Virus record (IMG/VR): IMGVR_UViG_2903589935_000002
Coordinates: 6,066-70,065 of that record
Source of the DNA: a virus
Taxonomy: Duplodnaviria; Caudoviricetes
Direction: 5' to 3' (one strand)
DNA: 64,000 nt
Below, in pieces: positions 29,353 through 46,281 of this stretch. Made by a program: the position numbers and the translations under genes. The notes beneath the pieces are model-generated. The model ran no database searches, was not told the origin of the DNA, and saw only the letters and a program-made list of their open reading frames with translations. Within the stretch, counting starts at the first letter, position 1; each line of letters opens with the position of its first letter.

Positions 29353-29577
29353 TTACATCGCCTCGAAATCTGGTTCTTCCGCCACAGGTTTTGGCGGTTC
29401 ATTACGGTATTTTACGGGGTTAAGGAAATGACCCCATGTTGTTTTTGGGTGACCGTCAGGGCGTTCAATAAAAAATATCCCAGCCCGGCGGAGAGCGTCA
29501 CATTGTTTCGACTTATAATGGTGACCGGTCAACTCAATCATCTCTTCTTTCGTAATTATGTCGTGGTCGTTTCGCAT
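29353..29577 (-). CDS. Putative excisionase (DUF4224-like)
   Basis: ITKEEMIELTG..KQCDALRRAGIFF..DGHP; adjacent to int; ATG at 29577 follows GAGGAAAGACC. Confidence 0.8.
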   Translation of the reverse strand: MRNDHDIITKEEMIELTGHHYKSKQCDALRRAGIFFIERPDGHPKTTWGHFLNPVKYRNEPPKPVAEEPDFEAM

Positions 29578-29743
29578 GGTCTTTCCTCGGTTCAATCATC
29601 CAGGCTATTGCGTCGTCGGTCACACGACACGCCCGGGTGATATCGTCATCGCTCAGCGTCGCTTTTCTGACGCTGGCAGACAGCCGGCCGATCTTGATGT
29701 CGAAATCAGAGAGTAGGCGGGCGCCTTGTTGCCATGGTTGCAT
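29534..29743 (-). CDS. Hypothetical protein
   Basis: GGGGA SD before MQPWQQG. Confidence 0.55.
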   Translation of the reverse strand: MQPWQQGARLLSDFDIKIGRLSASVRKATLSDDDITRACRVTDDAIAWMIEPRKDHAKRPRHNYERRDD

Positions 29744-29793
29744 TGCTGTTCCCCGTTGTGTGGTTTCAAACAATGCAAACATGGCGGTGGTGG

Positions 29794-29970
29794 TTATTTC
29801 TGATTTGGCGTAATCGGTTTTTTAAAGGCCTGTTTCTCGCGCTTAAACCGCTCGGTGTTCGGGAAGTCAAACACCAGCTCGCTGCGGCTTTCGACCCAGA
29901 TGGTGCCGGTTGTGCCGTCGGAAAACTGCACGCGCACCGCGTCGCCTTTGGCCAGGAACATTCTCAGCAT
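29794..29970 (-). CDS. 58 aa protein with CsrA-like pattern (not in ORF track)
   Basis: GAGGA SD; MLRMFLAKGDAVRVQFSDGTTGTIWVESRSELVFDFPNTERFKREKQAFKKPITPNQK. Confidence 0.6.
   Translation of the reverse strand: MLRMFLAKGDAVRVQFSDGTTGTIWVESRSELVFDFPNTERFKREKQAFKKPITPNQK
29799..29817 (-). promoter_or_regulatory. YdaT-type box upstream of xis-int (pI-like)
   Basis: tctGATT-tggcgt-AATCgg, 17/19 identical to 34874-34892. Confidence 0.65.
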
Positions 29971-30011
29971 GGGAGATCCTCAGTATTGGCCCCGTTGCCG
30001 GGGCCGGGTGA

Positions 30012-43215: not shown

Positions 43216-44841
43216 TTGATGGACGACACCGCCGCAAGGCTGATTAAACGCGTGAACACGCTCAAAGCCACCCGGCAGATGCATGAAAGCGTCTGGCGGG
43301 AGTGCTACGACTACACGTACCCGCTGCGCGGCGCTGGCTTTTCGTCTGAGGTGCTGGACGCTCAGAGCGCTAAGCACAAGGTGGCCAAGCTGCTAGACGG
43401 CACGGCGACCGATAGCTCGCGCATGCTGGCGTCCGCTCTCATGTCCGGCATGACGCCGGCAAACGCGCAGTGGCTGAATCTCGACAGCGAATCCCTGCCG
43501 GACGACGCCAAAGCGTGGCTTTCTACCTGCGCAACGCTGGTGTGGGAAAACATCCATGCGGCCAACTTCGACGCTGAGGGCTACGAGGCAAATCTCGATG
43601 TGGTGTGCGCTGGTTGGTTTGTGCTGTACGTCGATGAAGACCGGGACGAGGGCGGCTATTCATTCCAGCAGTGGCCACTGGCGCAGTGCTACGTTGCATC
43701 GACCCGCAAGGATGGCATTGTCGATACGATTTTTCGCTGCTACCAGCTGACCGCCGAGCAGGCGATCGCCGAGTTTGGCCAAGATGCTGTAAGCGAGAAG
43801 ATCCGCGACGCCGCCAAGAAAAAGCCAGACGACAAATTTGATTTTCTGCACGCGATTTTCCCGCGCACGAATTACATGGTTAACGCGCGCCTGGCTAAAA
43901 ACCTGCGCTTCGCGTCGTACAACATCGATGTGACCGCAAAAAAAGTGGTGCGCGAATCCGGCTACCACGAATTCCCCTGCTGCGTGCCGCGCTGGATGAA
44001 AATCCCCGGCGGTTCGTACGGCATCGGCCCGGTTTATGACGCGCTGCCGGACTGCAAGGAGCTGAACGAAACCAAACGCATGGAGAAAGCCGCGCAGGAC
44101 TTGGCGATCTCCGGCATGTGGATCGCCGAGGATGACGGCGTGCTTAACCCTCGCACCGTCAAGGTGGGGCCGCGCCGCATCATCGTGGCCAACAGCGTCG
44201 ACAGCATGAAACCGCTGCTGACCGGCTCAGACTTCAACGTCGCATTCACCGCTGAGGAACGTCTGCAGGCGTCAATCCGCAAAATCATGATGGCCGACCA
44301 GCTGCAGCCGCAGGATGGCCCAGCCATGACGGCCACCGAAGTGCACGTGCGCGTCGCGCTGATCCGCCAGCTGCTGGGGCCGGTGTACGGACGATTCCAG
44401 GCGGAATATCTGCAGCCGCTGGTTGAGCGCTGTTTCGGTATCGCGTTCCGTGCAGGTGTGTTCCCTGAGCCGCCGGAGAGCATGAACGCTGCCAACTTCA
44501 ACGTGCGATATATCTCGCCGCTGGCGCGCGCACAGAAGCTGGAGGACGTCACGGCGATTGAGCGTTACGCCCAGAACGTTATGCAGCTGGTGCAGGTTTA
44601 CCCGGACATTATCGACAACATGGACAGCGACGAAGCAAGCCGCGTTGTCGGCGAGGCGCTGGGTGTGCCGGCCAAGGTTATGCGCTCGTCGGCGGACGTG
44701 TCCACGCTGCGCGACCAGCGAGCTAAGGCACAGCAACAACAACAGCAACAGGCTCTGCTGATGCAGGCCGGCCAGCAGGCGGCAGGCGCTGCGGGACAGA
44801 GTGCTGGTGAAGCTATTGGCCAACAACTGGCGGGGGGCTAA
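43216..44841 (+). CDS. Portal (head-tail connector), T7 gp8/BPP-1-like
   Basis: YGIGP, MTATEV, EYLQPL, YISPLARAQ motifs. Confidence 0.92.
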   Translation: MMDDTAARLIKRVNTLKATRQMHESVWRECYDYTYPLRGAGFSSEVLDAQSAKHKVAKLLDGTATDSSRMLASALMSGMTPANAQWLNLDSESLPDDAKAWLSTCATLVWENIHAANFDAEGYEANLDVVCAGWFVLYVDEDRDEGGYSFQQWPLAQCYVASTRKDGIVDTIFRCYQLTAEQAIAEFGQDAVSEKIRDAAKKKPDDKFDFLHAIFPRTNYMVNARLAKNLRFASYNIDVTAKKVVRESGYHEFPCCVPRWMKIPGGSYGIGPVYDALPDCKELNETKRMEKAAQDLAISGMWIAEDDGVLNPRTVKVGPRRIIVANSVDSMKPLLTGSDFNVAFTAEERLQASIRKIMMADQLQPQDGPAMTATEVHVRVALIRQLLGPVYGRFQAEYLQPLVERCFGIAFRAGVFPEPPESMNAANFNVRYISPLARAQKLEDVTAIERYAQNVMQLVQVYPDIIDNMDSDEASRVVGEALGVPAKVMRSSADVSTLRDQRAKAQQQQQQQALLMQAGQQAAGAAGQSAGEAIGQQLAGG

Positions 44842-45074
44842 TGGGCATCAAGAAAGTTTCGCCACTGGATTACAAGCGGCTGTTTGAAGAGACGGCTGGC
44901 GGCGCCGAGGTGCTGGACGAATTAACCCGGCGCTTCGGTGGATCAATTTTTGTGAAGGGCGGCCCAGAGGGCGACCGCCAAACCTGTTTTAAGGCCGGGC
45001 AGCGTGACGTGCTCGATTTCATTTTGCGCCAGCTTAATCTGGCAGACGGAGTAAACGACGATGTGGAAGCTTAA
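44841..45074 (+). CDS. Bbp19-like protein
   Basis: YKRLF..GAEVLDEL..GQRDVLDFI. Confidence 0.75.
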   Translation: MGIKKVSPLDYKRLFEETAGGAEVLDELTRRFGGSIFVKGGPEGDRQTCFKAGQRDVLDFILRQLNLADGVNDDVEA

Positions 45075-45882
45075 ACACCTTTTCATGAACGCAGATGCAG
45101 GCGCTGACGCTGGGGGTAATGGTGATGCAGATAAACCAGATACTGGTGATGCTGGCGGCAATTCTCTGCTTAGCACCGGTGCCGCAGACCAGGCGGCCGA
45201 GGGTGATTTTATTCCTGAGAAGTACCGCACCAGCGGCGCTGACGGAAAATTTAACCTGCAAGACTCGGCGCGCAAGCTGGCGGATGCGTATTCGCACCTC
45301 TCCAAGCGCTTCGGCAGCGGCGACGTTCCGCCGAAAACTGTCGAAGAATATTCCCCGAAGGTAGAGGCCGAGGGCTTCAAGTGGGACGAATTCAAGGCTG
45401 ACCCTGAGATGCAGGGATTCCTCAAGGCGGCACACGCCAAGGGCATCACCAACGATCAGATGGGCTTCATCCTCGGCGAGTACATGAGCCGCGCGCCGGC
45501 GCTGGTGGGCGGTGCTGCTGAGTTGGATCAAGAGGAGGCGGCTACCGAGCTGCGCGGAACGTGGAAAACCGATGCGGAATTCCAGAAAAATATCGGGCTG
45601 GCGCACCGCGCGTTTATGTCGCTGGCCGACCCTGCTGACAAAGGCAAGATGGACGAAATCGGCAACAACCCGATGGTGATCCGCATGCTTGCGAAAATTG
45701 GCGCAGAGATGGGTGAGGATGTGCCAGTGCCTGGCGACATCAACCCAGAGGAGCAGCAGGCGATCCGCGACTTGATGAAGTCAGAGGCATACACCAACCC
45801 GAAACACGCCGACCACGAACGCGTCTCTGCGCAGGTAAAAGCGTTCTATCAGAAAACCTACGGCGACCAAGCTGTCGCATAA
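45061..45882 (+). CDS. Capsid scaffolding protein
   Basis: IPEKY, GNNPMVIRMLAKIG..ED motifs; position. Confidence 0.75.
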   Translation: MWKLKHLFMNADAGADAGGNGDADKPDTGDAGGNSLLSTGAADQAAEGDFIPEKYRTSGADGKFNLQDSARKLADAYSHLSKRFGSGDVPPKTVEEYSPKVEAEGFKWDEFKADPEMQGFLKAAHAKGITNDQMGFILGEYMSRAPALVGGAAELDQEEAATELRGTWKTDAEFQKNIGLAHRAFMSLADPADKGKMDEIGNNPMVIRMLAKIGAEMGEDVPVPGDINPEEQQAIRDLMKSEAYTNPKHADHERVSAQVKAFYQKTYGDQAVA

Positions 45883-45897
45883 TCCGAGGAAAGACCA

Positions 45898-46281
45898 ATG
45901 ACCGACAAAGAAATCGAGCAGGAAATTCAAGCCAAAGGCAAAACCGCGCCCCGCATAACGCCTGACCATATCGAGAGCATTATCAGCGACTGTTATTACT
46001 TTACTGCGCAAGACGGGTTAATGACTGCAAATCCTGACGCAGCGCAATACTCACCAAAGTCTCTTGATCTGCTTACCTTCTGCGTACTGGTACTGAAAAA
46101 CGGGTTCACAGTCACCGGAGAAAGCGCCTGCGCCAGCCCGGAGAACTTCGACGCCGAGATTGGCCGCAAGATCGCCCGCGACAACGCTGTGCAAAAAATC
46201 TGGGCGCTGGAAGGTTACCTGCTGAAGCAGCGCATGCATGACGATGCGCATCTGCGTGAACTGTTACGGCAGAAAGAGTAA
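45898..46281 (+). CDS. Gp49-family (N4-Gp49/Sf6-gp66-like) protein
   Basis: KTAPRITP..LKNGFTVTGESACASPENFDAEIGRKIA..LEGYLL. Confidence 0.88.
   Translation: MTDKEIEQEIQAKGKTAPRITPDHIESIISDCYYFTAQDGLMTANPDAAQYSPKSLDLLTFCVLVLKNGFTVTGESACASPENFDAEIGRKIARDNAVQKIWALEGYLLKQRMHDDAHLRELLRQKE

Follow-up and report, generated by a model that had tools for sequence, protein, structure and literature searches.

Control of lambdoid phages, as it is usually taught, relies on repressors, antiterminators, and a few cis-antisense RNAs. What, then, keeps one and the same ribosome-binding site (RBS) ahead of five scattered genes of such a phage? The question is raised by a stretch of 64,000 nucleotides (nt), positions 6066-70065 of the 70,065-nt provirus record IMGVR_UViG_2903589935_000002, which is referred to here as the window. 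The 12-mer GAGGAAAGACCA, termed the tag, recurs in it at the starts of five genes and is accompanied by hairpins of the CUGACCA-loop type. It is argued below that tag and hairpin are probably the two-part target of one antisense small RNA (sRNA) of ~120 nt, encoded opposite the leader of the leftward early (PL) operon. This sRNA is predicted from sequence comparison, not observed.

A ribosome-binding tag shared by dispersed genes

The tag has six exact matches and one match with a single mismatch in the window, all between 29.5 and 45.9 kb, and therefore none within the P2-like part. Among 100 dinucleotide shuffles the mean count was 0.23, the largest was 2, and none reached 7. The entire provirus record also gives six forward or reverse matches with no extra copy, and the reversed control gives none. 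An earlier note on this DNA had described an identical motif, always in the sense direction, ahead of five scattered genes and had not noticed it in the P2-like prophage. All of this is borne out by the exact count and by the positions of the copies.

The five gene-linked copies lie on the same strand as their open reading frames (ORFs), 0-4 nt ahead of the ATG. On the minus strand, the last A of the copy at 29577-29588 is the A of the ATG of xis (29353-29577), and the copy itself lies within an upstream ORF of 82 amino acids (aa); the copy at 32684-32695 is followed by AAA and the ATG (32680) of a 723-aa exonuclease gene (30509-32680). On the plus strand, the copy at 35381-35392 abuts the ATG of a 72-aa ORF (35393-35611), which overlaps the O-like initiator gene. 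The copy at 37736-37747 shares its last A with the ATG of a 140-aa ORF (37747-38169), and the copy at 45886-45897 abuts the ATG of a gene of the gp49/Sf6 gp66 family (45898-46281). The tag is made up of the Shine-Dalgarno (SD) sequence GAGG and a fixed spacer, AAAGACCA, so that GAGG stands 7-11 nt ahead of the ATG. Its 9-mer core is GGAAAGACC and the 11-mer used in some searches is GAGGAAAGACC.

Gene names in the window were taken from PHROGs and Pfam matches. The early genes on the minus strand are integrase, xis, a Mu Gam-like gene, the 723-aa exonuclease gene, three small ORFs, and a cI-like repressor gene. On the plus strand are cro-like and cII-like genes, the 72-aa ORF, the O-like initiator, a DnaB-like gene, the 140-aa ORF, and a theta-like gene, continuing to the structural genes. 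The tagged region is thus a lambdoid early region, and the phage is a prophage of an enteric-type bacterium.

The remaining copies are in the PL leader on the minus strand: an exact one at 33587-33598 and a one-mismatch one, GAGGAAAGACCG, at 33731-33742, whose A to G change still allows pairing with U. The earlier note had listed further copies in this leader. They do exist, but the copy at 33587-33598 is the template of the predicted sRNA's own seed. No conserved ORF follows this copy, and it is therefore not kept as an RBS. A 29-codon ORF (33490-33579, minus strand) begins 7 nt after it; since relatives have no ATG there, this ORF is probably no gene.

Agreement between tags and the putative sRNA gene

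The main evidence for a reader of the tag comes from related phages that carry other versions of it. Two relatives have GAGGCAAGACC and a third has GAGGCAAAACC. These variant tags sit at xis, at the exonuclease gene, at the homologue of the 72-aa ORF, and at other starts, and also in the leader copy that is the template of the sRNA. Start-proximal sites were collected with the pattern AGG-N-AA-N-ACC(0-5 nt)ATG from 26 stretches with an identifiable sRNA-template copy, and 107 of the 111 sites share a 9-mer with the template copy of their own genome. The agreement is 92/95 for GGAAAGACC (23 stretches), 9/10 for GGCAAGACC (2 stretches), and 6/6 for GGCAAAACC (1 stretch). The sequence flanking the core follows the seed as well: with a seed ending in CCUA, UAGG or AAGG takes the place of GAGG at most sites. 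Among the single-site variants, GGTAAGACC, GGAAAGGCC, and GGCAAGATC would wobble-pair.

In two further stretches no template copy was recognised by the pattern. One of these is the cultured Pectobacterium phage ZF40 (NC_019522), in which a seed, UUGGUCUUGCCU, can be seen by eye, and GAGGCAAGACC is found at xis, gp05, gp13, gp16, and gp18. The hypothetical ZF40 gene gp08 (4919-5407, GTG start) covers both the leader hairpins and the predicted sRNA gene and is perhaps an artefact of annotation. Three other provirus records, with single odd sites, are GGCAAGACC phages, as is ZF40.

The tagged sites precede unrelated genes. Therefore, common descent of the sites cannot explain their joint changes, which need a common reader of matching specificity. 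The simplest such reader would be the RNA whose gene is complementary to one copy of the tag. When duplex energies with the seed were computed for 76 translation-start regions of the window, the five tagged genes took the top five ranks (-27.1 to -35.9 kcal/mol; next -22.6, median -15.1); as the exact match itself produces this ranking, it adds no independent evidence.

Structure and conservation of the predicted sRNA

Left of cI, the minus strand has the cI terminator and a promoter-like TTGACC-17 nt-TAATAT (33966-33938). These are followed by the PL leader with a first terminator (33780-33756), the one-change tag, a CUGACCA hairpin, a GAAAGA hairpin, and a second hairpin-terminator (33658-33683). 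Next come a pair of hairpins with the loop GACCAA and then the exact tag (33598-33587), behind which lie one more hairpin and the true SD of the first gene. On the opposite (plus) strand, ahead of the first PL gene and three genes upstream of the exonuclease gene, an RNA of ~120 nt is predicted at about 33564-33686 from Rfam, folding, and comparison. It would be antisense to the leftward early operon. A predicted extended -10 element (TGnTATAAT), TGATATAAT, lies at 33549-33557. A 5' helix is followed by the seed UUGGUCUUUCCUCG (33586-33599), the exact complement of the tag; its complementarity to the target SD regions extends over 12-15 nt. Hairpin 2 (33600-33621) has the loop UUGGUC, hairpin 3 (33626-33650) has the loop UUGCUUUGGUCGGCG, and the terminator (33658-33680) ends in seven U. 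The predicted RNA thus carries UGGUCUUUCCUC together with UGGUC loops. In its predicted fold UUUCCUC of the seed is unpaired, and UUGGUC is within the 5' helix. For the 122-nt stretch, the folding energy is -63.7 kcal/mol (z = -7.8), a stability reached by none of 200 shuffles.

With permissive thresholds, cmscan aligns positions 33569-33679 of the plus strand to positions 1-87 of the isrB model (RF01386), including the loop GCUUUGGUCGG and the terminator. In this alignment, 31 nt are inserted in the RNA of the window, and they include UUGGUCUUUCCUC and an additional UUGGUC hairpin. At the gathering score, Rfam gives no match in the whole window, and a tRNA scan gives none either; at E values up to 10, no families appear beyond isrB, rsmX, istR, OrzO-P, and similar ones. 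No complement of the tag is encoded elsewhere in the window, the best duplexes being opposite strands of the tag copies themselves.

Which strand of the leader is selected for structure can be judged by aligning the leaders that accompany 44 relatives of the first PL gene; 27 distinct sequences were used for consensus folding. Each of the 44 aligned sequences has TATAAT or TATACT, in most cases as TGATATAAT, and this element lies 6-8 nt ahead of the structured part. A T-run stands behind the terminator on the plus strand in all 44, and several relatives have no T-run in the leader direction. The consensus fold of the plus strand has -32.7 kcal/mol and 27 pairs, 12 of them with compensatory changes, as against -12.4 kcal/mol and 12 pairs for the leader strand. 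In the plus-strand alignment 94.5% of the cells are paired, a value matched by none of 500 shuffles (slid controls, 33-56%). The same helices contain many G-U pairs and, because of these, pair far less on the leader strand: 95.6% vs 67.0% for helix 1, 92.6% vs 68.5% for helix 3, and 92.6% vs 78.3% for the terminator. It is thus the plus strand on which the structure is under selection.

The first terminator of the leader together with the preceding 19 nt, AUUGCUGUGUGUAGUCUUU (33756-33800, minus strand), is identical, letter by letter, to the 3' part of the RprA consensus in Rfam and is kept in relatives. An identity with RprA (RF00034) was rejected, as the score is 25.3 bits at full length and 28.4 bits for the 3' half against a cut-off of 70, and only AUUGCUGUGUGUAGUCUUU and the terminator match. 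A short PL-proximal RNA ending in this segment might mimic the 3' module of RprA.

Hairpins ahead of the tagged genes

CTGACCA occurs 12 times in the window (5.35 expected), and four of the occurrences are hairpin loops. Three of these lie ahead of tagged genes: CGGCGC-CUGACCA-GCGCCG at 32706-32724 (minus strand), followed by AUUUUUAACA; GCGC-CUGACCA-GCGC at 35347-35361 (plus strand), within the end of the cII-like gene; and GGCGC-CUGACCA-GCGCU at 37706-37722 (plus strand), behind the DnaB-like gene. The fourth, a stem variant GAGC-CUGACCA-GCUC, is in the PL leader at 33715-33729 (minus strand). The hairpins listed in the earlier note, this stem variant included, were found again. A fifth, absent from its list, is GUGUCGU-GUGACCG-ACGACGC at 29610-29630 (minus strand), 23 nt upstream of the xis tag, and its GUGACCG loop recurs at 17 sites of related stretches, at the xis position. 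No hairpin with a CUGACCA-type loop precedes the gp49-family gene; the only one there is GCGAC-CAAGCU-GUCGC at 45863-45878, with GACCA in its stem.

Hairpins were surveyed in 28 stretches (the window, the stretches of 25 relatives, the region of an E. coli prophage, and phage ZF40). Among the 93 hairpins upstream of tagged starts, the loop is CUGACCA in 66, GUGACCG in 17, CUAACCA in 3, and one of a few others in the rest. The stems vary (GCGC, GGCGC, CGGCGC, AACGC, CACGC, GCAC, CGG). On the sRNA side, the hairpin loops of the aligned relatives always hold UGGU, as UUGGUC, GUGGUUC, or UUUGGUCGG; thus at least ACCA, and usually GACCA, of the target loop can pair with them. A U-turn motif, YUNR, is known from recognition loops in antisense systems, and the C-U-G-A of the CUGACCA loops fits Y-U-N-R.

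Some hairpins show additional features. The one ahead of the exonuclease gene (32706-32724) also scored as terminator-like, and it alone has a T-run behind it (AUUUUU here, UUUUUU in relatives); it may double as a terminator or attenuator within the PL operon. The leader hairpin GUCGG-GAAAGA-CCGGC (33694-33709, minus strand) contains GGAAAGACC at 33697-33705; with this copy, absent from the earlier note, the 9-mer core is present three times in the leader. In one group of relatives the stem of this hairpin becomes GCCCG/CGGGC, a compensatory change, yet one that breaks the GGAAAGACC core. For the hairpin at 33715-33729, relatives show a stem of GGC, GGGC, or CAC and one of the loops CUGACCA, CUAACCA, AUGACCA, AAGACCA, and CUCACCA.

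Proposed mode of action

In the reading favoured here, the tag is kept identical ahead of five genes as the landing site of one phage-encoded sRNA. We infer expression of this RNA, its pairing in vivo, and repression as the direction of regulation. Transcription would begin after TGATATAAT, at ~33564, and end at the seven-U terminator, at ~33686. The CUGACCA loops of a target would offer GACCA to a UGGUC loop of the sRNA for a fast first contact, after which the anti-SD stretch would pair over the SD and the start codon. Since the predicted 5' helix covers UUGGUC of the seed, opening of this helix would be part of the pathway. As a result, ribosome entry would be blocked at xis, at the exonuclease operon, at the 72-aa/initiator pair, at the 140-aa gene, and at the gp49-family gene.

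In a lysogen, the sRNA would silence leaky early and structural messages. Upon induction, strong PL transcription through the sRNA gene would produce a fully complementary leader together with two decoy sites (33731-33742 and 33694-33709) and thus remove the sRNA; it would also collide with the sRNA promoter.

If this reading is true, one sRNA governs dispersed excision, recombination, replication, and head-assembly genes through an identical RBS tag that has several natural versions. Such a multi-gene tag would be a new form of phage antisense-RNA control. It would explain why RBSs are base-identical across unrelated genes of these phages, would provide a concrete mode of action for the orphan IsrB family, and would constitute a natural set of orthogonal sRNA-RBS pairs. 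Testable material exists in the carriers of the system, namely the cultured phage ZF40 and prophages of E. coli, Serratia, Enterobacter, and Citrobacter.

A more speculative extension, which we regard as possible though doubtful, is that tag and sRNA together make up a specificity code written in RNA, which would add to phage immunity a second layer acting after transcription. Silencing by a given lineage (GGAAAGACC, GGCAAGACC, or GGCAAAACC) would be confined to genes with that lineage's tag version. When a phage of the same type enters, its genes for excision, recombination, replication, and the head would be shut off as well, and phages of other types would escape. The versions would act as immunity groups that could be switched by a few matched base substitutions.

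Arguments against the sRNA and alternative explanations

Several observations weigh against an sRNA reader. The isrB score of 33.1 bits is below the Rfam gathering score of 35. The predicted 5' helix occupies UUGGUC and leaves only ~7 nt of the seed, UUUCCUC, free. An archive search returned no sequencing run recorded as RNA that contains the stretch; in two raw PolyA RNA runs and two contig sets, the few mapped reads fall on the terminator only and originate elsewhere, a result that speaks neither for nor against the sRNA. The single-site variants GGCAATACC and GGAAATACC would not wobble-pair. Most of the GGAAAGACC genomes are closely related, and independent events are few, with three tag versions. 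Complementarity between the sRNA and its leader copy exists by construction, and the agreement of the sense copies is equally expected if a protein reader co-evolves with them. Finally, loop-to-loop complementarity amounts to only 4-5 bp, and the target loop is more uniform than pairing needs. Of the two-part operator proposed in the earlier note, the tag part is supported by covariation, and the loop part, with just 4-5 complementary bases, is the weakest link of the sRNA reading.

The last two points lead to the alternative that survives best, which we nevertheless consider unlikely: a phage or host RNA-binding protein may read the GACCA loops and the tag, with the PL leader as a CsrB-like sponge and the antisense RNA either incidental or acting in cis on PL only. 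A protein could account for the constancy of CUGACCA (66/93), for loops that stay unchanged in phages with different tag versions, and for a leader with three tag copies and three to four ACCA-loop hairpins. The loops, however, are without the GGA that CsrA reads, and matches to the CsrA, Hfq, ProQ/FinO, or N families were found neither in 34 early and middle ORFs (PHROGs) nor in 18 small ORFs (Pfam), a negative that is weak evidence. The structure, its G-U pairs, the promoter element, and the T-run of the terminator all favour a functional RNA from the antisense strand. The earlier note had left the choice between an RNA and a protein reader open. An operator read by an sRNA gains support from the predicted RNA gene, the tag complementarity, and the covariation of versions, whereas the protein-read sponge is left with no candidate protein among the PHROGs and Pfam matches.

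It is quite improbable that the arrangement has no dedicated reader at all. The hairpin, the A/C-rich spacer, and the strong SD would in that case form an efficient intercistronic cassette, a message stabiliser or weak terminator followed by an unstructured landing pad for ribosomes, which spread by descent or recombination among mosaic lambdoid phages. The geometry of GAGG relative to the ATG is indeed good for an SD, the spacers between hairpin and tag are A/C-rich, and the hairpins stand at the 3' ends of upstream genes, one of them being terminator-like. Such a cassette does not account for the match between 107 of 111 sites and the template copy of their own genome through three tag versions, for copies ahead of unrelated genes, for leader copies retained with no ORF behind them, or for the absence of the tag from host RBSs (see below). 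A purely manual check of whether the spacer could pair with the 3' end of 16S rRNA yielded no good helix, and this idea, which would also fail to explain phage-specific tag versions, was dropped.

The hairpins are very unlikely to be boxB-like nut sites for an N-type antiterminator with the tag as an accessory box: although GC-rich stems with a conserved 7-nt loop recall the boxB hairpins of P22 and phage 21, and the PL leader has terminators that need passing, lambda-type N/nut antitermination was rejected because the exact boxA GCTCTTTA is absent from the window (33 one-mismatch matches vs 38 expected, none beside a hairpin), no N-like or arginine-rich first gene was found by PHROGs, Pfam, or start contexts, and each genome has four to five sites, every one at a start codon, instead of two promoter-proximal ones.

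Comparison with known RNA regulators

Small phage immunity RNAs are known from P1/P7 (c4) and P4 (CI). They recognise short repeats in phage transcripts, one set of which overlaps an RBS, and their specificity types differ between related phages; they are processed from the target strand and control one operon. The sRNA proposed here would resemble them in reading short repeated transcript sites and in having specificity versions. It would differ in being encoded antisense and in having at least five dispersed target genes, in both arms and the structural region.

In hok/sok, CopA/CopT, and RNAI/RNAII, which are cis-encoded pairs with fully complementary loops, YUNR U-turn loops are used. The target loops of the window are similar in that C-U-G-A is followed by bases complementary to the sRNA loops. 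In contrast to those pairs, the loop match is 4-5 bases, the main duplex would be over the SD, and the xis loop begins with G, not a pyrimidine.

The CsrA/RsmA systems with their CsrB/RsmX-Z RNAs are alike in having a two-part operator, a hairpin loop plus a site overlapping the SD, and an RNA with many copies of the loop motif. The loops here are CUGACCA or GUGACCG instead of GGA, and Pfam gives no CsrA-family match in the phage. The plus strand matches rsmX weakly (27.3 bits vs a gathering score of 56). CsrA/CsrB-type control was rejected on these three grounds.

The closest relative by sequence model is IsrB, which was detected experimentally as an RNA of 88/94 nt from the Salmonella prophages Gifsy-1 and Gifsy-2, where it is encoded antisense between sbcA and the gene next to it (Padalon-Brauch et al., PMC2330248). 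The parts of that paper and of PMC5391140 that were available assign it no established function. Like the RNA of the window, IsrB is an antisense gene inside the leftward early operon of a lambdoid prophage and has a GCUUUGGUCGG-loop hairpin followed by a GC-rich Rho-independent terminator. The true IsrB of Gifsy-2 scores 99.3 bits and lies between recE and STM1010. It differs in that no anti-SD module is present, and both the repeated tag and the CUGACCA hairpins are missing from Gifsy-2, which counts among the points against the proposed sRNA function. The bench evidence on IsrB therefore does not extend to that function. By the same contrast, the RNA of the window is a relative of IsrB, which it resembles in its 3' half, extended by a 5' module with the seed; the tag regulon is a property of this phage group.

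The svsR RNA of prophage NC-SV was rejected as the same RNA, since in the part of the report available it is located at the 3' end of cI and is co293-like (PMC12803456). A literature search returned no account of such a regulon or of its tag and hairpin, and among the papers listed there was none on the ZF40 transcriptome; full-text queries with GCCTGACCAGCGC, GAGGAAAGACCA, TGGTCTTTCCTC, and UGGUCUUUCCUC, and with GGAAAGACC combined with phage, returned unrelated primers only.

Distribution among phages and hosts

A complete host genome allows the tag to be compared with ordinary RBSs. In the chromosome of E. coli NZ_CM180093.1 (4.85 Mb), a related prophage beside tRNA-Leu near pgsA (2030661-2041087) carries the system in full, with an xis site, GAGGAAATACC, that differs from the tag at one position. 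The chromosome has nine exact copies of GAGGAAAGACC, six of them within 5.2 kb of the prophage early region; of the remaining copies, two run antisense within genes and the third lies in hokD. Hence no host RBS of this chromosome carries GAGGAAAGACC. This comparison, suggested in the earlier note, is in favour of the tag being a phage-specific signal and not a habit of host RBSs.

The exact hairpin 15-mer GCGCCTGACCAGCGC was found in at least 136 IMG/VR stretches. In 60 of the 136 listed, a tag follows 5-30 nt downstream of the hairpin, with an ATG no more than 5 nt further. The tag in these 60 is GGAAAGACC in 56 and GGCAA[AG]ACC in 4, and the genes begin with 23 different N-terminal heptapeptides. 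Most of the other listed 15-mer matches look like chance matches in GC-rich contigs. With a variable-gap pattern, 14 of 124 matches among one-genome-per-species contigs have the full signature, the rest being mostly chance; nine of the 14 were identified by title, all of them Enterobacterales (Serratia, Escherichia, Enterobacter, Citrobacter).

A megablast search with positions 29000-38500 returned no near-identical named phage, only a 130-nt match in two Stenotrophomonas phages. The Stenotrophomonas-labelled phages BUCT708 and BUCT709 have ~74% identity over 75% of the leader region (33500-33960) and a 42%-identical exonuclease. This host label is unexpected, as the system is otherwise seen in Enterobacterales.

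A second kind of locus was seen in eleven of the IMG/VR stretches. It consists of tandem hairpins, GCCC-CUAACCA-GGGC and GCGC-CUGACCA-GCGC, followed by a terminator for both directions and by GGGG-UACCA-CCCC; no tag lies within 70 nt of them. Perhaps these loci represent leaders from a different group of phages that has a related RNA.

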